This document shows positions 9,205-25,706 of a stretch of 31,090 bases of DNA, piece after piece. Location of the stretch: NCBI RefSeq assembly GCF_000185845.1, contig NZ_GL629647.1, positions 580,471 through 611,560 of the forward strand, given 5' to 3'. The stretch comes from Segatella salivae DSM 15606. GTDB lineage: Bacteria; Bacteroidota; Bacteroidia; Bacteroidales; Bacteroidaceae. The position numbers and the translations under genes were made by a program. The notes beneath the pieces are model-generated. The model had not been told where the DNA came from and searched no databases. It worked only from the letters and a program-made list of their open reading frames with translations. The first letter of the stretch is position 1. Each line of letters opens with the position of its first letter.

Positions 9205-9291
9205 GGAAGGATGGGTGAGTGGCTGAAACCAGCAGTTTGCTAAACTGCCGTGCGAGTTCTCGTACCGGGGGTTCGAATCCCCCTCCTTCCG
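9205..9291 (+). tRNA. tRNA-Ser, anticodon GCT
   Basis: Acceptor stem GGAAGGA/TCCTTCC. Anticodon stem GCAGT/ACTGC with loop TTGCTAA. Long variable arm. T-arm GGGGG TTCGAAT CCCCC. Discriminator G. Confidence 0.85.
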
Positions 9292-9323
9292 CAGGCAATA
9301 TTCTAAGAGAATATTAGCCAACT

Positions 9324-9395
9324 GGTCGGTTCATCTAACGGTTAGGATACAAGATTCTCAATCTTGGCATACGAGTTCGATTCTCGTACCGACTA
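9324..9395 (+). tRNA. tRNA-Glu, anticodon CTC
   Basis: 72 nt. Acceptor stem GGTCGGT/ACCGACT with one G-U pair. Anticodon stem CAAGA/TCTTG with loop TTCTCAA. T-arm ACGAG TTCGATT CTCGT. Confidence 0.7.
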
Positions 9396-9453
9396 CAAAA
9401 GAGTCCTGCAAATCATTGATTTGTGGGGCTTTTTACTTTATAATAGGATATAT

Positions 9454-10665
9454 ATGGAATCGATTAAAGAGATATTCAAGATAGGAAAAGGTCCTTCAAG
9501 CAGTCACACAATGGGACCACAGAAGGCAGCAAAAATCTTCACGGAGCGGCATCCAGACGCCACCTCCTTTCAAGTAATCTTGTATGGCTCGCTGGCTGCC
9601 ACAGGAAAGGGACATATGACAGACACTGCAATAGAAGAAGTCATGCAACCAACAGCACCTGTTGAGATTATCTGGCAACCTCAAACGTTTCTTCCTTTCC
9701 ATCCAAACGGCATGAAATTTATAGCTTTGAATGATAAAGAAGAACCCACAGAAGAATGGACTGTCTATAGCATTGGAGGTGGAGCACTATCTGAAGGCAA
9801 GGCTTCTGATGATTTCTTTTCTACTAAAGAGGTCTATCCCCTTAACTCACTCCATGACATTATGCGGTGGTGTAATGACAATGGACGCAGTTATTGGGAA
9901 TATGTTGAAACATACGAAGATGAAGATATATGGGAATATCTGTATCAAGTATGGGACGTTATGAAACAAGCCGTGAGATCAGGCTTAGCACATGAAGGCG
10001 TACTTCCGGGTCCATTACACCTTCCAAGAAAGGCCGCCACATACTATGTAAAGGCTACTGGATACAAACCTTCATTACAAAGTAGAGGCTTAGTTTATTC
10101 ATATGCCTTAGCAGTAAGTGAGGAAAATGCATCAGGGGGAACTATCGTTACGGCACCAACTTGTGGAGCCTGTGGTGTAGTTCCAGCCGTTTTATACCAC
10201 CTTTATAAAGCACATAACTTCAGTAACGAACGTATTATCCGAGCACTTGCTACTGCAGGACTATTCGGAAATATCGTAAAGAAGAATGCATCCATTAGTG
10301 GTGCCGAGGTTGGATGCCAAGGAGAAGTTGGTGTTGCCTGTGCCATGGCGTCAGCAGCAAGCTGTCAACTCTTTGGTGGAAGCCCCACTCAGATTGAATA
10401 TTCTGCTGAAATGGGATTAGAACATCACTTGGGTATGACATGCGATCCTGTCTGTGGATTAGTTCAAATCCCTTGCATCGAGCGTAACGCCTTTGCCGCC
10501 ACACGTGCACTTGATGCTCAACTCTACGCATCTTTTGGTGATGGGAGTCATCGTGTGAGTTTCGATAGAGTGGTAAACGTCATGAAACAGACTGGTCATG
10601 ATTTGCCTTCACTCTACAAAGAGACCAGCGAAGGGGGCTTAGCTAAAGGGTATAATCTGGAATAA
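9454..10665 (+). CDS. sdaA: L-serine dehydratase, single-chain iron-sulfur type
   Basis: Start trimmed to ATG 9454, because the longer ORF would overlap tRNA-Glu. N-terminal IGKGPSSSHTMGP motif plus a Cys-rich C-terminal half (CGACG…, CQGEVGVACAMA). Confidence 0.8.
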   Translation: MESIKEIFKIGKGPSSSHTMGPQKAAKIFTERHPDATSFQVILYGSLAATGKGHMTDTAIEEVMQPTAPVEIIWQPQTFLPFHPNGMKFIALNDKEEPTEEWTVYSIGGGALSEGKASDDFFSTKEVYPLNSLHDIMRWCNDNGRSYWEYVETYEDEDIWEYLYQVWDVMKQAVRSGLAHEGVLPGPLHLPRKAATYYVKATGYKPSLQSRGLVYSYALAVSEENASGGTIVTAPTCGACGVVPAVLYHLYKAHNFSNERIIRALATAGLFGNIVKKNASISGAEVGCQGEVGVACAMASAASCQLFGGSPTQIEYSAEMGLEHHLGMTCDPVCGLVQIPCIERNAFAATRALDAQLYASFGDGSHRVSFDRVVNVMKQTGHDLPSLYKETSEGGLAKGYNLE

Positions 10666-13406: not shown

Positions 13407-14225
13407 TCAATAACTTTCGTCTATATTTGGGAAAGAACAAGTTTTAACTTCGCGAATATAGGCCTGAACACCAGCCGTCATACACTTGTTCACATCTGCA
13501 AAATGGCGCAAGAACTTAGGCTTAAACCCTTGAGTCATCCCCAAGGCATCAGCATAAACCAAAATCTGTCCATCTGTTCCACAACCAGCACCAATACCTA
13601 TCGTGGCACAACGAACATTGCGTGTTACCTCTTCTGCAAGTTTAGCAGGCACTTTTTCCAATGTAATACAAAAACATCCAGCCTCATCTAACAGCCGAGC
13701 ATCATTGAGAAGTTTCTCTGCTTCAGCCTCCTCCTTGGCACGAAGTCCGTAACCTCCAAACTTATGTACACTCTGTGGAGTTAATCCTAAATGGCCCATT
13801 ACAGGAATTCCGGCATCAATAATACCTTTAACGGTAGCAATAATCTCTGCTCCTCCCTCCATCTTTAGTGCATCAACGCCTGTTTCTTTCATTATCCTTA
13901 TGGCGTTCTTAACCCCTTCTTCACGACTAACTTGATAACTTCCAAAAGGCATGTCACAGACCACCAAACAATGACTACATGCGCGAACAACACTCCGAGC
14001 ATAATAAATCATTTCATCTATGGTGATGGGGAGAGTATCTGAATTTCCTGCCATGACATTAGAGGCTGAGTCCCCCACAAGGATTCCATCAATGCCTGCA
14101 TTGTCTATAATAGATGCTGTGGTGTAATCATAAGCAGTGAGCATTGTTATTTTCTCACCAGCTGCTTTCATTTCCGCAAATGTTCTTGAAGTAATCTTTT
14201 TCTTCTCTGTAGATAAGTATCCCAT
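13407..14225 (-). CDS. panB: 3-methyl-2-oxobutanoate hydroxymethyltransferase (ketopantoate hydroxymethyltransferase)
   Basis: MLTAYDYTTASIIDNAGIDGILVGDSASNVMAGN… canonical PanB N-terminal region. 272 aa. Confidence 0.9.
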   Translation of the reverse strand: MGYLSTEKKKITSRTFAEMKAAGEKITMLTAYDYTTASIIDNAGIDGILVGDSASNVMAGNSDTLPITIDEMIYYARSVVRACSHCLVVCDMPFGSYQVSREEGVKNAIRIMKETGVDALKMEGGAEIIATVKGIIDAGIPVMGHLGLTPQSVHKFGGYGLRAKEEAEAEKLLNDARLLDEAGCFCITLEKVPAKLAEEVTRNVRCATIGIGAGCGTDGQILVYADALGMTQGFKPKFLRHFADVNKCMTAGVQAYIREVKTCSFPNIDESY

Positions 14226-19487: not shown

Positions 19488-19859
19488 ATGAAAGAATTAA
19501 GGATAAAACGTATTTATGAAGCCATCGAAGAACAAGATGGTTATCGTGTTTTGACAGACAGATTGTGGCCGAGAGGCATAGCAAAAGCTAAGGCTGCTAT
19601 CGACCTTTGGGAGAAAACTGTTGCTCCTTCAACAGAACTTAGGGAATGGTTCGGGCATATTCCTGAAAGGTTTCCAGAGTTCACAGAACGCTATTTGCAA
19701 GAACTTGAAGATAATTCTGACGCAACCAAGTTTGTTGAACTCTGTCAAAAACAACTCGAAAAGAGTAATGTTACCTTATTATATGGTGCCAAAGATGAAG
19801 TTCATAACCAAGCCGTTGTGTTGCAAAACTTCATTAACAAGCATCTAAGAACAAAATAA
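19488..19859 (+). CDS. DUF488-family protein
   Basis: MKELRIKRIYE…YRVLTDRLWPRGIAKAKAAIDLWEKTVAPSTELREWFGH matches the DUF488 N-terminal signature as remembered. Confidence 0.6.
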   Translation: MKELRIKRIYEAIEEQDGYRVLTDRLWPRGIAKAKAAIDLWEKTVAPSTELREWFGHIPERFPEFTERYLQELEDNSDATKFVELCQKQLEKSNVTLLYGAKDEVHNQAVVLQNFINKHLRTK

Positions 19860-20471
19860 AGCTATCAACATGGGAATGCTAACTTCAAGTATTAACCCAT
19901 GAAATATGGCGACGGGTATTATTCGTTTATCGCCTGAAGCATTAAGAATTGAAGGCAGACAAACATCCATTGAACTGATACCTGCTGTCGAAATAGCTGC
20001 TAAACTCCCTCCTTTTAGAGTAAAGAAACGGCATCCAAACAAAGAAAGTAGCTCGCGAGCAACGTTCGTAAGCAATGCAATTGTAGCCAATTGTGTTGCT
20101 TGTGTAGCCCCTACTGTTATTGTTTTTAGCTGTGCAATCAATACAGATGACAACGAATAATAACCGAAACCACTTCCTATTGCCATTATATCTGAGAGCT
20201 CATGTGTATTGAAAAGGAAGAAAGCTAAAGCCGTAAAGACTAATGTTCCAACTATAGTACAAGCGGGTAATAGGAACATTTTCAAGTTAATTGAACGTAA
20301 CATCTTCCCTAAATTGTCCATAGATCCCACGCCAATTCCAACCTGAATGATTAGCGCAGACAATACAATCATAGGCAAAGATGGGTTGAGTAACCACTCC
20401 GGAGCTATATCAAAAGCTCCAACTCCGATTCCAACAATCAACGCAAACAATAGGGAGAGATTATCTTTCAT
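19845..20471 (-). CDS. LysO/YbjE-family (DUF340) membrane protein, large part
   Basis: Start trimmed to MKDNLSLLFALIVGIGVGAF. Multi-TM, Gly/Ala-rich helices typical of lysine-exporter LysO. Confidence 0.55.
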   Translation of the reverse strand: MKDNLSLLFALIVGIGVGAFDIAPEWLLNPSLPMIVLSALIIQVGIGVGSMDNLGKMLRSINLKMFLLPACTIVGTLVFTALAFFLFNTHELSDIMAIGSGFGYYSLSSVLIAQLKTITVGATQATQLATIALLTNVARELLSLFGCRFFTLKGGSLAAISTAGISSMDVCLPSILNASGDKRIIPVAIFHGLILEVSIPMLIALFCS

Positions 20472-20748
20472 TGTTATTTTGTTCTTTATTATTAATGAAG
20501 CGATTAAACATATAAGCCGTTCCAAAACTGCCAATCATACCTAAAACAGCTATAACAAAAGCCTGCCAACCAAAATAACCAATATTAGAAATGAGGTCAT
20601 GATTAGCACCTATCGAAACACCGAATATGAAAAGAAGAACTATTATGGTATAATGTGCGGTGTGATCTACCTTTTGTATTCCACGAATATTACGCAGTAA
20701 ATACCCTATTCCAACACCAAGCAACAGCAGAAAAAGTATCTTGAACAT
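20461..20748 (-). CDS. LysO-family small N-terminal partner membrane protein
   Basis: 95 aa with 3 TM. Overlaps the downstream LysO gene by 11 nt, a common split arrangement. Confidence 0.5.
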   Translation of the reverse strand: MFKILFLLLLGVGIGYLLRNIRGIQKVDHTAHYTIIVLLFIFGVSIGANHDLISNIGYFGWQAFVIAVLGMIGSFGTAYMFNRFINNKEQNNNER

Positions 20749-20773
20749 GTCTATTTAATCTGTTTGTTTGATG

Positions 20774-20781
20774 CAAAGGTA
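20774..20781 (-). promoter_or_regulatory. -7 element (minus-strand TAccTTTG) for the lysO pair
   Basis: The plus strand reads caaaggta, 26 bp upstream of start 20748. Perfect palindromes lie upstream: ttaattgatt/aatcaattaa about 20836-20859, and gtttgata/tatcaaac about 20967-20985. Confidence 0.45.
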
Positions 20782-20923
20782 TTAAATTATGCCCTAATCC
20801 AACATCATATTTATGCATTTTTTAATCATATTGCCACTTAATTGATTTGAATCAATTACATAAACGAGTTAAAATCTACAAGTTATATACTTTATTTCGC
20901 ATTAAGGTTACTATCACGCAAAA

Positions 20924-20953
20924 AGGAGATACACACAAAATGTATCTCCTTTT
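20924..20953. terminator. Bidirectional terminator hairpin downstream of the zinc-ribbon gene
   Basis: aggagataca (20924-20933) pairs with tgtatctcct (20941-20950). aaaa precedes it and ttt follows. Confidence 0.7.
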
Positions 20954-21068
20954 AATATAATATCACCGTTTGATAGATTATCAAACTCAATATGAATATT
21001 ACTTTATAATTAAATTCTTGCTTACTTTTTATACTACATTATAAAACAAAGCATGATACGCATTGCAA

Positions 21069-22427
21069 TTATTCAATAGTATATTCAGTTGATAATTCTG
21101 CGCCTTTTTCCCATTTCCCTGTCGCAATATCAAAGCCATAAGCATGCATATCATCATAGGTATTACGACGATTACGCTTTCCTATAATCCAAATCACATT
21201 GCCTACACGCTCTCCTCCAACCACTTCTGAGAAGCGATCTAACACTTGAGTCCAAAGGATTTTCCCCGTTTTATCATACAATCTAAACATAGACCGAGCG
21301 TCAGATGCCAAAGAAGGATTAAAATATATCAACGCATAATGTGCATCTTGATAAATAAACTGCCCATTAAATCCAACAAACCAATCGGTCATTGGGGTTG
21401 CACTTACAAACCTTCCACCACGATCTGAAGAGAAAGTACCATAAAACCAATCATAAAAAACAAAGTCCTGAGGGTCTCCTAAGTGGTATTTGGCATGAAT
21501 ATTCCATAATCTCAGCAGTCCTTTTCGGTCTGTATTATTGTTTGGTGACTTACTAATCAGCTGCCAATACAATGTATCTCGCACTTCCCCATTTAGTTGA
21601 GAAGGCGGTAATTGCCTTGCATAATTAAAGGCTTCTTCGGTATATAAACGATTCGTTGCAGGGAAATAATAGTAGCTTTCCGCTATATTATTCTCCACCT
21701 TAAAGCCTTCTCCATCAGCTGGATAGATGAATTTAATCGATGCTATGCCGGTATTCATAGCCTGCTTACCCTTAAAGAATGACTGAGAAACATCTGTTAT
21801 TGTTAACGATGCAGGATTAACCTCATAAACAAAGCGGCCTGCTACGACTAAATACCAGTGCTTAGCTTGCTTTAAATAGCTTAGTTCTGTGTCTGAAGTT
21901 GGACTAATAGACTGTTTATCTGCATCGTCTTCAGACATAAAAAGCTGTTCTTTGAGCACCTTACCAGTAATTGCATCGCGGAAACCCATATAGTAACCAT
22001 TTACATACTTCGACCCCGTTGAGCTGTAATTTGTATTAAAATTGCGCTCAACAAGATAGAAAATACAAGGTTTTCCTTTATTATTCATCGGCGAAACGAG
22101 GGTATACAAGTCGCGAACAGTTGTCGAAGAGCTGCTATCCGATGAGCTTCCACTACTTGAAGTCGTAAGGAAAATTGCGATAACAAAGACTACTATCAAC
22201 GGCACCACTACTGCACCGATTGCAAGTTTGATGCCTGTTGATAAGTCATTATTCAAAAAATTGGATGACTGAAAATCGTAATGATGATTCACATTAACGT
22301 TAATATCGTCATCATCAAGGAAGAATTCAGTCCCACAATTTAAGCATCTATATCGCTTTTCGTCTAATTGTTCATGCTTCTCACTACCACATTGTGGACA
22401 TTTTACAGCCTTTATTCGTGTTGCCAT
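21069..22427 (-). CDS. Zinc-ribbon membrane protein: N-terminal CxxC…CxxC ribbon, one TM, Ser-rich linker, about 350-aa aromatic-rich ectodomain
   Basis: CPQCGSEKHEQLDEKRYRCLNCGTEF; TM IKLAIGAVVVPLIVVFVIAIFL; linker SSSGSSSDSSSSTT. Third gene of a translationally coupled operon. Confidence 0.6.
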   Translation of the reverse strand: MATRIKAVKCPQCGSEKHEQLDEKRYRCLNCGTEFFLDDDDINVNVNHHYDFQSSNFLNNDLSTGIKLAIGAVVVPLIVVFVIAIFLTTSSSGSSSDSSSSTTVRDLYTLVSPMNNKGKPCIFYLVERNFNTNYSSTGSKYVNGYYMGFRDAITGKVLKEQLFMSEDDADKQSISPTSDTELSYLKQAKHWYLVVAGRFVYEVNPASLTITDVSQSFFKGKQAMNTGIASIKFIYPADGEGFKVENNIAESYYYFPATNRLYTEEAFNYARQLPPSQLNGEVRDTLYWQLISKSPNNNTDRKGLLRLWNIHAKYHLGDPQDFVFYDWFYGTFSSDRGGRFVSATPMTDWFVGFNGQFIYQDAHYALIYFNPSLASDARSMFRLYDKTGKILWTQVLDRFSEVVGGERVGNVIWIIGKRNRRNTYDDMHAYGFDIATGKWEKGAELSTEYTIE

Positions 22428-22434
22428 AAGTGCT

Positions 22435-22773
22435 TTAAGCCTTCTTTGAGTAATAAATTGCCAAGAACAACAATATAGCTTGAACAGCTGTTAGAATGAC
22501 AACACTCAACAACCACCAGTTATTTTCCCATTGTTCTGGGGCAAAGAATCCTGTGATGAACTCTAAAGCGCCAACACCTGCAAAGATAAAACCTAAAGTT
22601 AAACGATGAGTACTCTCTGCATTTCCTACAAATGAGCCAGCAAGTAGCAATCCATTAAGAATAATTGCCAAGCTCGTAAAGAGAAAATTCGTTGGAGAAT
22701 AAGCAGTTATCAGTAATCCCGCAAGAAGATTGGCGACTAATATTATAACAGAAATAACTAAAATTCTTTTCAT
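22435..22773 (-). CDS. Small 4-TM membrane protein
   Basis: 112 aa with four hydrophobic helices. Its ATG overlaps the upstream stop (ATGA), and it ends 7 nt before the downstream gene. Confidence 0.55.
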   Translation of the reverse strand: MKRILVISVIILVANLLAGLLITAYSPTNFLFTSLAIILNGLLLAGSFVGNAESTHRLTLGFIFAGVGALEFITGFFAPEQWENNWWLLSVVILTAVQAILLFLAIYYSKKA

Positions 22774-23780
22774 AATTTCTCTAATATTTCATTCTTTTTC
22801 TTTGTAAATTCCTCTTCAGAAATTAACTGGGCATCAAAAAGTTGCTTTAATTGTGTCAGGCGAGTTGCAGCATCTGGCATTGCAACCTCTTGCGAAACAT
22901 TAGCATCACTCTTCGTATTGAAGAATTCTTTTGCCAATTGAACCCCTGCACCTACTTGCAAACCAGCTCCTGCAAGACCGCCTTCTGTGCGCACTGCATC
23001 GCGTAAAGCAGCCAACTTTTGAACGCCAGCATAATCTAAATCAACTTCAGACGCAGCACGTTTCTCTGCTGTCATATCTGCAATCTTACCGATTCGCTCA
23101 AGTGTACTCTCATCAAATGTAACTGAATCTATACGGAAATCTGTCAGCACAAAACCCAAACGTTCTAACTCTTCGGTTGTACGCGCTTTCAAATCTGCCG
23201 ATAATTCAAGCAAATGTTTATCTACTTCAGTATAAGGATAGCTTTTTTCGGCTAAGAAAGAAGTTAGTGGTGCAACGATACGTGAAGACACTAATTCGCG
23301 CACATCGCGTGCCGTATAGTCAGAAACCGAACCCAACAACGTTGTGAACATTGTCTCAGCGTCACCAATTTTAACAGAGAAGTTACCACAAGCTCCCAGT
23401 GCAACAGGAATATTATAGTTGGGTTCCATGTATTTTACAGGTGTAGCTGTGCCCCAAAGTACATTTACCAATTCTGCCGTACGGAAGAAATAGAACCGCA
23501 TTTTGTGCTCACTCTCAAAGTTTTGTGCCAGATTGAGCAACGTGGTGATAAACGGATGGTTATCTGATTGAAGTTCATACGTGCCTTGTTCTGTTAGTAC
23601 TGACTTCACCTTTCCATCATAAACTAAAAGACAACCTTGGCCTGGTGCAACAATAAGTTTACTTGAGTTTTTGATTTCATCGGTAGTAGTTGCCATTCGA
23701 TGGAACAGGATATTCATGTCTTGTTCTTTCCACTCAATGACTGAACGCAATTGCTTTCTAAAAGGATTCCTTATATTCAT
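22770..23780 (-). CDS. SPFH/band-7 (stomatin/prohibitin-like) domain protein with a C-terminal SHOCT-like short helical domain
   Basis: Start trimmed to ATG 23780 (MNIRNPF…); the 23810 start is a TTG. Band-7 core, then a coiled Ala/Glu-rich region and the terminal LKQLFDAQLISEEEFTKKKNEILEKL (SHOCT-like). Confidence 0.65.
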   Translation of the reverse strand: MNIRNPFRKQLRSVIEWKEQDMNILFHRMATTTDEIKNSSKLIVAPGQGCLLVYDGKVKSVLTEQGTYELQSDNHPFITTLLNLAQNFESEHKMRFYFFRTAELVNVLWGTATPVKYMEPNYNIPVALGACGNFSVKIGDAETMFTTLLGSVSDYTARDVRELVSSRIVAPLTSFLAEKSYPYTEVDKHLLELSADLKARTTEELERLGFVLTDFRIDSVTFDESTLERIGKIADMTAEKRAASEVDLDYAGVQKLAALRDAVRTEGGLAGAGLQVGAGVQLAKEFFNTKSDANVSQEVAMPDAATRLTQLKQLFDAQLISEEEFTKKKNEILEKL

Positions 23781-23852
23781 AGGTGTTAGCTTTAATCTAT
23801 GTGCACACAAAATGCATGCACTGTATTCTTAAAAGTTTTCGACAAAGTTAAG

Positions 23853-23860
23853 TAAATATT
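23853..23860 (-). promoter_or_regulatory. -7 element (minus-strand TAacTTTG) for the SPFH operon
   Basis: The plus strand reads caaagtta, 73 bp upstream of ATG 23780. Confidence 0.4.
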
Positions 23861-24367
23861 CTTAAACCTGAAGAAATATCATTCATTTTTTTTCATTTTA
23901 TATGAAAGTATATAACTCTTTCTCGTTTGATTTATGAGAACTAAACACTTAAAACATGATACACTTGAGTATAAATAAGATAATAGAATCAGTAAATATC
24001 GTATCTAATTGCACATACTTTATTACGACATAAAAGAGGTAGAGCGATTCGATTCAATTGTAGGATTTCGCCCTTTCCATAGTCTTAATCATCTCATTTT
24101 AAGGCTTTGGCGGTTTAATAGCTATCACTTGGCATTGCGGTTTGCATCATTTTACCGCACAATATACGTCATTTTATCGTGTAAAACAAGTTTAATCACA
24201 CGACCATTTGCATCAAAAGTATAGCTCAAGCAAAAGAGCTACGCTTTTATATGAATAGAAAAGAAAAGAGCTTATTAAACACTCTGACGCTCGAGGCCCC
24301 ATTTTTCATGGGCTATAACATCACATCTCTGCGCATGGTATACCTCTCCTTAAAGAAAGGATAGGGG

Positions 24368-24712
24368 TTAAAGCTTATTCCCTTCTTTGGGAAATACAAC
24401 AATAGGACTATAGTTTTTTGCTTCTTCGAAATCCATAAGTGCATAAGCAATGATAATCACCACGTCACCAACTTGAACTTTACGTGCCGCAGCTCCATTC
24501 AAACAAACACACCCCGACCCACGTTTGCCTTTAATGATATACGTTTCAAAGCGCTCACCATTATTGTTATTGACAATCTGAACCTTTTCCCCCGCAATAA
24601 GATTTGCCGCATCCATCAGATCTTCGTCTATTGTAATGCTCCCCATATAGTTTAGATTTGCCTCTGTAACCGTGGCACAATGGAGTTTACTTTTCAACAC
24701 TTCGATCATCAT
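24368..24712 (-). CDS. panD: Aspartate 1-decarboxylase (pyruvoyl-dependent proenzyme)
   Basis: [28 protein letters not shown]… with the Gly-Ser self-cleavage site and the conserved LNGAAAR region. Confidence 0.9.
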
Positions 24713-24713
24713 T

Positions 24714-25571
24714 TCATTTTCCCTTTCTATATCTTATATGGTCAATGAGACGTATAGGAGTCATTCCGCAATAGACTGTTATACATCCAACAACCCCATG
24801 TTCTGACGTCCAATCATCAACCGCCAATAACGTTTTACCATCTACAATCTCAAAATATTCAACCTCAAGTCCGTCAATCGCATTTATTTCGGCTACGACT
24901 TTATCATGCGTTTCCTCAACAGAATGAGTCTTGGAATAATCCAAACTATCTTTTAATGCTTGATAAATTGCTGGAGCAATAGCCCGTTCTTCCTTCGTCA
25001 GCAGCTTGTTACGGCTACTCATTGCCAAGCCATCCGCTTCTCGAATTATCGGACATTCTACAATCGTTATATTGCTATTCATATAATCTACAAGTTGTTT
25101 GATGACCGCAATCTGCTGCCAATCTTTCTCTCCAAAATAGGCATTATCAGGGGCTACGATAGTAAATAAGCGACTAACAACCTGACACACCCCATTGAAA
25201 TGTCCAGGACGACGCGCTCCTTCCATCACCGTTGTAACAGGAGGGAACTCAAACACACGCGTGTCGGGCTCGGGATAAATCTCTTCTACGGCAGGTGCAA
25301 AAACATAATCTGCACCACAAGCTTCAGCCAGACGAACATCTTCATCCAATGTTTTGGGATAACGTTCAAGGTCAGCCTTATCATTAAACTGAGTAGGATT
25401 AAGGAACACCGAGACAACAGTAATGTCATTGTCTTGTACACTGCGTTTAATCAGCGAGGCATGTCCCTCGTGTAAAGCCCCCATCGTGGGCACAAAACCT
25501 ATACTCTTGTCTGCATTTCGCGCGGCATTGAGTTCGTTTTGAAGTTCAACAATCTTTTTTTCGACTTTCAT
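24714..25571 (-). CDS. panC: Pantoate--beta-alanine ligase
   Basis: Start trimmed to [10 protein letters not shown]…. The HIGH-like motif [11 protein letters not shown]. Confidence 0.85.
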
Positions 25572-25706
25572 TTTCTTTATCCAAATCGGGCCACAAAATA
25601 ACAACTTTTTTCTTAAATAAGAAAGAATAATTATAAAAATATGCGAATTAATAAGCGCATTTGAGCCTTTATAGACAATTTTCTAATTTATTTCGTGTTT
25701 TTTTTA

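Follow-up and report, generated by a model that had tools for sequence, protein, structure and literature searches.

We found that three genes of Segatella salivae DSM 15606 form a compact operon encoding a soluble SPFH protein, a mini-protein with four transmembrane (TM) segments (4-TM) and a membrane protein with a zinc ribbon and a beta-propeller-like ectodomain (ZR). The SPFH protein is a homologue of YdjI (SamI) of Bacillus subtilis, and across the phylum Bacteroidota its gene is tightly linked to that of ZR. We lean towards the view that the products of the operon form an SPFH scaffold complex at the inner membrane, which would work without PspA as an analogue of SamGHI in the surveillance and organisation of the envelope or membrane. 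Literature searches on SPFH proteins with SHOCT, on PF13421, on Bacteroides and beta-propellers and on anti-phage contexts returned no description of this module.

Operon structure and flanking DNA

Coordinates refer to the window, the whole stretch of 31,090 nucleotides that was analysed, and all features of the three genes lie on its minus strand. The SPFH gene (22770-23780) encodes 336 amino acids from its ATG, as also annotated by NCBI on the source contig, and is followed by the ORFs of the 4-TM protein (22435-22773; 112 amino acids) and the ZR protein (21069-22427; 452 amino acids). As read from the sequence, the TGA of the SPFH gene overlaps the ATG of the 4-TM gene in an ATGA junction, and a gap of 7 nt (agcactt) precedes the ATG of the ZR gene. 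An earlier note on this DNA had proposed a tight operon of these three genes with this overlap and gap. It had also recognised a strong bidirectional terminator at 20924-20953, which we found as an intrinsic-terminator hairpin at the end of the operon (20921-20953), consisting of a 13-nt perfect inverted repeat (AAAAGGAGATACA/TGTATCTCCTTTT) with a 7-nt loop and flanked on both sides by A- and T-tracts. The −7 motif of the same note, placed at 23853-23860, was not recovered there. In a pattern scan, the sole match to TAnnTTTG upstream of the SPFH start was TAACTTTG at 23843-23850, 63 nt 5′ of the ATG. Because this motif is frequent (0.72 per kb per strand), the match is weak evidence and is taken as a candidate Bacteroidota −7 element only.

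The operon is bordered by two LysO ORFs on one side and by PanD/PanC on the other, as the lysO-like and panD/panC neighbours of the note had implied. Taken together, the flanks consist of genes for pantothenate synthesis, LysO and Rnf-like proteins and other housekeeping functions. The two spacers next to the operon measure 320 bp (20749-21068) and 587 bp (23781-24367; 560 bp in the note) and are indeed AT-rich, with a GC content of about 0.28-0.31 versus 0.35-0.44 in genes. The note had described these flanks as palindrome-bearing, which holds for the terminator hairpin of the operon; the upstream spacer contained no palindrome except the hairpin of the panD terminator (24221-24242). The spacers look like ordinary intergenic DNA. 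We searched for borders of a mobile element and found no integrase, no border tRNA and no meaningful direct repeats; an Rfam scan of the window gave two tRNAs only, at 9.2-9.4 kb. The cassette is without marks of an inserted element, and its description as an insertion was not borne out.

The SPFH protein is homologous to YdjI

The SPFH protein scored 119.9 bits with Band_7_1 (PF13421; cut-off 24; E=1.6e-34), and the alignment takes in positions 2-209 of the 211 in the profile. The match spans residues 27-236 (23073-23702), with a pLDDT of 80-93 over most of this core, and in the model a long helix follows the SPFH alpha/beta fold. At the C-terminus, SHOCT (PF09851; 29.2 bits, cut-off 27) forms a bihelical domain at residues 307-333 (22782-22862), with helices at 304-316 and 322-335 in the model; its motif LKxLLDExIITQEEFxxKKKExL is kept in the sampled homologues of other orders. 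Conservation within the protein peaks in a Gly/Ala-rich segment, EGGLAGAGLQVGAGVQLA (residues 262-283; 22932-22997), which has a column conservation of 0.87 among 71 Bacteroidota SPFH proteins and a low pLDDT. Within it, G268, A270 and G279 are invariant, also when relatives of Bacillus YdjI are compared, and the segment may serve in membrane contact or oligomerisation. According to one prediction, SHOCT tethers domains to the inner leaflet of the membrane (bioRxiv 10.1101/2020.09.24.301986). No other domain accompanies SHOCT as often as Band_7_1, and a role of SHOCT in oligomerisation was not supported by experiments (PMC3581485).

Kyte-Doolittle scans gave zero, four and one TM segments for the SPFH, 4-TM and ZR proteins, respectively, the last two counts being those of the earlier note. 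The SPFH protein has no hydrophobic segment and therefore no N-terminal membrane anchor. A sequence search of the PDB with this protein gave no match, and a homologue search with it as query returned close Prevotellaceae relatives only. When it was compared directly with B. subtilis YdjI (P0176) by BLASTP, we observed 26% identity over 235 amino acids (E=1e-24), in an alignment that starts at residue 7 and extends across the complete SPFH core, the invariant Gly-rich segment included.

The likeness extends to the operons. In pspA-ydjGHI (pspA-samGHI), as here, the genes are tightly packed, the SPFH protein is a TM-less member of Band_7_1, and two further membrane proteins are encoded, one of which starts with a cytoplasmic CPxCG zinc ribbon. 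In experiments, YdjI is soluble, and its membrane foci need both YdjG, which carries N-terminal zinc ribbons, and YdjH (PMC8581546; bioRxiv 10.64898/2026.02.06.704340). There are differences as well. The SPFH protein ends in SHOCT here and in a zinc ribbon in YdjI, and the host is a diderm, unlike B. subtilis. In YdjG, two ribbons and a cytoplasmic NTF2-like domain are joined to a TM segment at the C-terminus (see also bioRxiv 10.1101/2020.09.24.301986), whereas ZR combines a ribbon, a TM segment and a predicted periplasmic beta-propeller; the two aligned in the first ribbon only (10/30 identities, E=0.004). YdjH is a TPM-domain protein, whereas the second membrane protein is here the 112-amino-acid 4-TM protein or, in other genomes, a 2-TM protein of about 79 amino acids, and none of our three proteins matched TPM_phosphatase (PF04536). 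In addition, tblastn gave 0 matches to PspA/IM30, YdjG or YdjH in the window and the 79 loci described below. Set directly against the B. subtilis locus, ZR and 4-TM were rejected as orthologues of YdjG and YdjH. The resemblance to pspA-ydjGHI, to which the earlier note had drawn attention, thus stands for the SPFH protein and for the general make-up of the operon, but not for PspA, for YdjH or for YdjG beyond its ribbon. No effector or regulator, PspA or other, was found in the operon.

ZR joins a conserved tail, predicted to be cytoplasmic, to a divergent ectodomain

The layout of ZR in the earlier note, CxxC…CxxC followed by a poly-Ser stretch (TTSSSGSSSDSSSSTT) and an aromatic-rich C-terminal part of about 350 amino acids, was seen again in the translation. 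The protein begins with a Cys4 zinc ribbon, predicted to be cytoplasmic (residues 8-36; 22320-22406), with a CxxC-x14-CxxC spacing and no conserved His. Its cysteines C10, C13, C28 and C31 each recur in 90% or more of the 93 family members compared. The ribbon is followed by an acidic motif, LDDDDINVNVNH (residues 37-48; 22284-22319), in which the conservation of ZR is highest (0.72; D38, D40 and D41 at least 90% conserved) and which we propose as a cytoplasmic docking site. Next come a single TM helix (residues 64-87 in the model, Kyte-Doolittle peak at 68-86; 22167-22238), a Ser-rich flexible linker (residues 88-102; 22122-22166; pLDDT below 50 at 89-98) and an all-beta domain, predicted to be extracytoplasmic, that resembles a beta-propeller with about 24 strands in roughly 6 blades (21072-22121). 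The AF2 model of ZR had a mean pLDDT of 80.6 and a pTM of 0.71. Ribbon and acidic motif are far better conserved (0.69-0.72) than the propeller (0.37), which would make sense with a tail in contact with the highly conserved SPFH protein and an ectodomain that is diversifying.

Among 1.84 billion representatives, matches at E<=1e-3 defined a ZR family of 666 cluster representatives (50% identity), nearly all of them full length with 400-470 amino acids. The ectodomain matched no curated family, consistent with the note, which had recognised none. A PDB sequence search with ZR returned ribbons only, and the ribbon gave weak matches to zinc ribbons in Pfam and the PDB, as well as to TFIIB/TFS-type ribbons. 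The same layout of N-terminal cytoplasmic ribbon, one TM segment and large ectodomain is found in Firmicutes proteins of the TcaA/YvbJ type. The match of NCBIfam TcaA to ZR (E=0.022; 13.6 bits against a cut-off of 550) was confined to the ribbon and TM segment (residues 9-87), however, and the TcaA ectodomain is unrelated to the ZR propeller. We know of no linkage of TcaA to SPFH genes.

A ribbon inside, one TM segment and a sensor-like domain outside is also the layout of membrane-bound regulators and zinc-binding anti-sigma factors. ZR could accordingly be a membrane-tethered one-component regulator, similar to ToxR or an anti-sigma factor, in which the propeller senses a periplasmic signal, the ribbon binds nucleic acid or a transcription factor and the SPFH protein is an accessory. 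The weak TFIIB/TFS-type matches point in this direction, and DNA binding was raised for the YdjG ribbon by Popp et al. However, the ribbon has only about 30 amino acids and is followed by the invariant poly-Asp motif, which is expected to repel nucleic acid, and ZR contains neither an HTH domain nor the HxxxCxxC motif of ZAS anti-sigma factors. Moreover, ZR is linked to an SPFH gene and not to a regulator: among 148 non-redundant proteins encoded in the flanks of the collected loci, response-regulator and AraC domains occurred in 2 each, and sigma-factor domains were outside the 25 commonest Pfam families. We therefore consider a regulator of this kind very unlikely.

Small membrane proteins encoded next to the SPFH gene

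The 4-TM protein matched no Pfam, NCBIfam or PADLOC family. Its gene was present in 24/24 Prevotellaceae loci, the window included, and overlapped the SPFH gene by 4 nt in 23 of these 24; conserved features of the protein are an AESTHRLSLG loop and a DNWW motif. A small ORF with at least two TM segments lay directly 3′ of the SPFH gene in 60/73 loci, and such a gene was absent from this position in about 13 of the 73. The position is occupied by two unrelated families of small proteins. The 2-TM proteins of 79 and 73 amino acids are related to each other (hhalign 95%). We rejected the idea that 4-TM is a duplicated 2-TM protein, as hhalign probabilities of the whole protein or either half against the 2-TM family were only 0.4-2.4% and that between its two halves was only 11%.

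The gene order resembles that of SPFH-NfeD pairs (QmcA-YbbJ, stomatin PH1511-PH1510, FloA/NfeD, YqiK-YqiJ), in which the SPFH gene is also followed, often with an overlap, by a gene for a small multi-TM protein. Furthermore, the SPFH fold is similar in structure to QmcA, stomatin, HflK/C and prohibitin. The SPFH protein might thus form a cage, as in HflK/C-FtsH or QmcA-YbbJ, that encloses and regulates ZR and 4-TM as its clients, for example a receptor or a small channel, and act as a brake on them. A restraint of SamGH signalling by SamI, argued for in the 2026 SamGHI preprint, would fit this idea. However, NfeD (PF01957) was found neither in 4-TM (Pfam, E<=1) nor in the 2-TM proteins (Pfam, E<=0.01); both are too short for its OB-fold domain, and neither matched a protease or channel family. 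The SPFH protein lacks the TM or hairpin anchor of SPFH-NfeD pairs and the N-terminal TM anchor of cage-forming SPFH proteins. Identity to the HflK/C-FtsH and flotillin/prohibitin cages is only 7-14%, and these differ further from the SPFH protein, which has a SHOCT C-terminus and no linked protease. ZR is a conserved third component that SPFH-NfeD systems do not have. The SPFH gene and its neighbour are not the ordinary NfeD-type pair that the note had raised against its own proposal. Client regulation, which overlaps heavily with a scaffold held by anchors, appears unlikely to us but deserves some weight.

The SPFH-ZR linkage is conserved in Bacteroidota

Using the ZR protein, we collected 79 independent Bacteroidota loci. 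In 74 of them the SPFH gene adjoins the ZR gene on the same strand, with permuted gene order, from Prevotellaceae to Sphingobacteriales, Flavobacteriales, Cytophagales and Chitinophagales. This linkage far exceeds chance, and the three genes, which might have been confined to the source genome, recur well beyond it. The order SPFH-4TM-ZR was seen in 23/23 Prevotellaceae loci, usually with a gene for a secreted MORN-repeat protein downstream. The window lacks this gene, and tblastn detected no remnant of it in the 320-bp spacer (best E at least 0.19, at scattered positions). In about 50 loci of other orders, one to three ZR genes precede the SPFH gene and that of a small 2-TM protein, with a median gap of 7 nt between ZR and SPFH genes (50 loci). 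Both this gap and the 4-nt overlap in Prevotellaceae fit co-translation. Tandem ZR paralogues, up to three beside a single SPFH gene, fit a contact through the ZR tail combined with a diversifying ectodomain. Because small TM genes are missing from some loci and the MORN gene from the window, only SPFH and ZR make up the firm core. The SPFH gene is split in two draft genomes, which suggests either that the module is dispensable or that there are sequencing errors.

The earlier note had also considered a defence module. A compact operon of uncharacterised membrane proteins could encode an anti-phage or abortive-infection system, with ZR as an envelope sensor of phage attack and the other two proteins as an effector that disrupts the membrane. 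The chromosomal position of the operon varies between genera, and the tandem ZR duplications are possible for diversifying receptors. The surroundings argue against it: the neighbour genes vary and look housekeeping, as do the pantothenate, LysO, Rnf-like and other flanking genes here, and each PADLOC family matched at most one of the 148 flanking proteins, whose Pfam families were heterogeneous. PADLOC-DB v2 matched none of the three proteins, with sub-threshold noise only (Cas5d, E=0.004; Cas12 models on the ribbon), PHROGs gave weak SHOCT and ribbon matches only, and a scan of 2.9 million viral contigs yielded no relative of ZR. Moreover, SPFH identity declines smoothly with taxonomic distance, from 81% to 43%, which fits vertical inheritance, and the borders show no sign of mobility. 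A role in defence is therefore highly improbable.

A proposed scaffold coupled to the periplasm

For the scaffold complex that we favour, the following mechanism can be envisaged. The SPFH-SHOCT protein, like its homologue YdjI/SamI, would oligomerise beneath the cytoplasmic membrane and, having no anchor of its own, would be held there by two co-translated membrane proteins. Anchoring would fall to the 4-TM mini-protein and to the ZR tail on the cytoplasmic side, with its zinc ribbon and invariant acidic LDDDDIN motif. ZR would span the membrane once and display its beta-propeller in the periplasm; such a topology would couple the cytoplasmic scaffold physically to a domain for binding or sensing in the periplasm. 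The propeller may have a partner in the secreted MORN-repeat protein of most relatives, a pairing for which a conserved C-terminal strand, (K/R)LxVxxDGxIxV, is of particular interest. More tentatively, and with more doubt than confidence, the module, together with the MORN gene where there is one, could be seen as a Bacteroidota-wide trans-envelope system and a distinct SPFH-based class for envelope stress or organisation, in which a YdjI-type SPFH cage is coupled via the zinc-ribbon/acidic tail to tandem-duplicating periplasmic propeller receptors and senses or organises the envelope without PspA. If this were true, zinc-ribbon membrane adaptors would be the general route of Band_7_1 proteins to the membrane.

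SPFH proteins, among them the flotillins, stomatins, prohibitins and HflK/C, are universal organisers of membranes. To our knowledge, their soluble Band_7_1 branch has been studied in B. subtilis only, where its role is entangled with PspA. The module described here is a simpler version without PspA, kept throughout a phylum to which major human oral and gut bacteria as well as soil bacteria belong, and its membrane partners represent three unannotated protein families, the ZR propeller, 4-TM and 2-TM proteins. It also leaves one candidate fewer among possible defence systems. Our analysis predicts that the SPFH protein is recruited by the ribbon/acidic tail together with a small TM protein, and that the periplasmic side is made up of the propeller and the MORN-repeat protein. 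The module could reveal how cytoplasmic membrane scaffolds are connected with the periplasm in diderm Bacteroidota.

Organisation of the cassette in the window

Three consecutive minus-strand ORFs make up the cassette, as the earlier note had claimed: the genes encoding the SPFH protein (22770-23780, 336 aa counted from its ATG), the 4-TM protein (22435-22773, 112 aa) and ZR (21069-22427, 452 aa), a protein with a zinc ribbon and an ectodomain resembling a beta-propeller. The proposed tight spacing was seen in the sequence, with the TGA of the SPFH gene and the ATG of the 4-TM gene sharing ATGA and 7 nt separating the latter from ZR. The NCBI annotation of the source contig (GCA_019391875.1) has the same SPFH start, and homologues are 327-345 aa long; there is no need for the longer TTG-initiated ORF. 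The terminator expected at the operon end is a perfect 13-nt inverted repeat with A- and T-runs on either side (20921-20953). The suggested '-7' motif, on the other hand, was misplaced by about 10 nt; a TAnnTTTG box, which is a common motif, lies at 23843-23850. The flanks had been described as AT-rich and palindrome-bearing. Both spacers (320 and 587 bp) are indeed AT-rich, at a GC of about 0.28-0.31, but the upstream spacer harbours no palindrome except the panD terminator hairpin.

The neighbours are those named before: the cassette lies between two LysO ORFs and PanD/PanC. The LysO lysine-exporter homologue (19845-20748, minus strand) is divided into two overlapping ORFs of 95 and 208 aa, which both match PF03956 and are split identically in the NCBI annotation; its 3' end runs 15 nt into the convergent DUF488 gene (19488-19859). 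The pantothenate genes do not form one cluster, panB (13407-14225) being about 10 kb from panD/panC (24368-25604). Several co-directional genes lie in between, one of them encoding FMN_bind and Fer4_5 domains and possibly Rnf-type, along with the DUF488 gene, both LysO ORFs and the SPFH module. Elsewhere in the window, tRNA-Ser(GCT) adjoins tRNA-Glu(CTC) (9205-9396). The serine dehydratase ORF (9364-10665) is listed with a TTG start that overlaps tRNA-Glu, so the true start is probably further downstream.

Linkage of ZR and the SPFH gene in Bacteroidota

A word-indexed search with ZR gave 54 clusters at 90% identity. Against 1.84 billion 50%-identity representatives, searched exhaustively, there were 666 matches at E<=1e-3, of which 226 reach E<=1e-30. 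Almost all matches are full length (400-470 aa), and the family is small and uniform. Scanning one genome per GTDB species, we found 179 ZR relatives; the neighbourhoods of the best 79 of these 179 loci, all from Bacteroidota, were read by tblastn and ORF clustering. The SPFH gene adjoins ZR co-directionally in 74 of these 79, and the association accordingly extends beyond the source genome. Loci without this adjacency are mostly contig ends or extra ZR paralogues.

In Prevotellaceae (23 loci and the window) the SPFH gene overlaps the 4-TM gene by 4 nt, and ZR follows after 6-22 nt. In about 50 loci from other orders, the SPFH gene is preceded by a single ZR gene or by a tandem of two or three, with a median ZR-to-SPFH gap of 7 nt, and a gene for a 2-TM protein of 73-82 aa usually follows. 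This second arrangement is found in Dysgonomonas, Porphyromonas, Pedobacter, Sphingobacterium, Mucilaginibacter, Flavobacterium, Chryseobacterium, Hymenobacter, Niabella and Crocinitomicaceae, among others. In 60 of 73 loci, a small ORF with two or more TM segments begins within 220 nt 3' of the SPFH gene. The 4-TM protein, with its four TM segments, has no family match in Pfam, NCBIfam or PADLOC, and homology between it and the 2-TM protein is not detectable, so the slot is filled by different families. SPFH and ZR therefore form the firm core of the module, and a small membrane protein right after SPFH is its second conserved feature.

The 2-TM family carries no annotation. Its members (loci L024-L079, e.g. 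L029:8365-8601) share a conserved motif at the end of the cytoplasmic tail, (Y/F)(D/N)xxxGN(R/K)AHP(K/R), a possible docking peptide. Several genera have two or three ZR paralogues per single SPFH gene, arranged in tandem upstream of it (L011, L012, L018, L024, L030, L049, L054, L062, L068 and L077). The SPFH gene is in two ORFs in L003:4636-5650 (Prevotella aurantiaca JCM 15754) and L009:4668-5886, the latter beside a 4-TM gene that is truncated too; either pseudogenisation or draft-assembly frameshift errors could account for this.

Nearly all other Prevotellaceae loci that extend far enough carry after ZR, often overlapping it by 4 nt, a gene for a secreted MORN_2/YwqK-like repeat protein of about 250 aa, whose tail is Lys-rich and whose C-terminal strand, (K/R)LxVxxDGxIxV, is conserved. 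The window is unusual in lacking this gene, and no remnant was detectable in the 320-bp AT-rich spacer (20749-21068).

These neighbourhoods also bear on the suggestion that the cassette may be a defence module. When the defence catalogue was consulted, none of the three proteins had a PADLOC match. The flanks encode 148 non-redundant proteins, among which no defence family occurs repeatedly and the commonest Pfam family accounts for only four; the window's neighbours are housekeeping genes. No ZR relatives were found on viral contigs, PHROGs matches are weak and fall only in the ribbon and the SHOCT tail, and the cassette borders carry no tRNA, repeat or integrase. A defence role is therefore disfavoured.

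Conserved features of ZR and the SPFH protein

ZR comprises a Cys4 zinc ribbon (residues 8-36), an acidic motif LDDDDINVNVNH, a single TM helix (residues 64-87), a Ser-rich linker and an all-beta domain of about 350 aa. Because a zinc ribbon requires a reducing environment, and from the charge distribution, we infer an N-in/C-out topology with a periplasmic propeller. Across 93 proteins, column conservation is highest in the ribbon and acidic motif (0.69-0.72), compared to 0.37 in the propeller and 0.21-0.28 in the linker and TM helix. Of these 93 proteins, paralogues included, at least 90% keep the ribbon cysteines and acidic motif, which suggests that the periplasmic propeller diversifies. 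A membrane-tethered transcription regulator or anti-sigma factor would also place a cytoplasmic domain before a TM helix, but is unlikely here, as both an HTH domain and an HxxxCxxC motif are absent, the poly-Asp tail after the ribbon is invariant, and the module has no regulator as a consistent neighbour.

Conservation of the SPFH protein is very high, identity between orders being 43-55%, and sampled homologues keep its SHOCT tail. Its most conserved block is a Gly/Ala-rich segment, EGGLAGAGLQVGAGVQLA (residues 262-283; window 22932-22997), partly invariant even in Bacillus YdjI and predicted with low structural confidence. This segment could insert into the membrane or mediate oligomerisation in an SPFH protein that is otherwise considered soluble.

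Comparison with SamGHI and proposed mechanism

The earlier note likened the cassette to the pspA-ydjGHI (SamGHI) module of B. subtilis. As YdjI reference we used NCBI protein P0176 (323 aa, PF13421 and a zinc ribbon), fetched with a query that served as bait only. Its locus encodes, in order, PspA (PspA_IM30), YdjG (341 aa, Zn_Ribbon_TF), YdjH (254 aa, TPM_phosphatase) and YdjI. Residues 7 to 234 of the window's SPFH protein align with YdjI (26% identity, E=1e-24), and G268, A270 and G279 of the Gly-rich segment are invariant between the two groups. ZR, in contrast, matches YdjG only in the first ribbon (10/30 residues, E=0.004); YdjG differs in build, as also described by Ravi et al. (bioRxiv 10.1101/2020.09.24.301986), with a pair of ribbons, a cytoplasmic domain and its TM helix at the C-terminus. 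The 4-TM protein is no relative of YdjH, which has a TPM domain. In tblastn searches of the window and the 79 loci, PspA, YdjG and YdjH gave no matches, whereas YdjI matched 74 of the 80 sequences. The likeness thus holds for the SPFH component and the logic, a soluble SPFH protein with two membrane proteins, one of them N-terminally ribboned, and fails for the partners and PspA.

YdjI is experimentally soluble, forms membrane foci that depend on YdjG and YdjH, and acts as a scaffold or brake on both (PMC8581546; bioRxiv 10.64898/2026.02.06.704340). From the YdjI homology and the conserved linkage, we propose that ZR and the small TM protein bring the SPFH-SHOCT protein to the inner membrane, in a model whose contacts, oligomeric state, topology and physiological role are inferred. 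The strong conservation of the ribbon and acidic motif, together with that of SPFH and its retained SHOCT tail, supports a conserved cytoplasmic contact. The propeller, more variable and at times tandemly duplicated, would be the periplasmic binding or sensing end. A candidate periplasmic partner is the MORN-repeat protein, whose C-terminal strand is conserved. The operon contains no enzyme or regulator gene. Control of ZR and the small TM protein as clients of an SPFH cage is compatible with the same data as recruitment.

The combination of Band_7_1 with SHOCT has been on record since 2013 (PMC3581485), and the principle of an SPFH protein with membrane partners is already known from B. subtilis. 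The ZR propeller family, the 4-TM/2-TM partners and the conserved Bacteroidota operon are undescribed in the available literature. The module holds no surprising new principle; it offers a clean, PspA-free, phylum-wide system to study soluble SPFH scaffolds.
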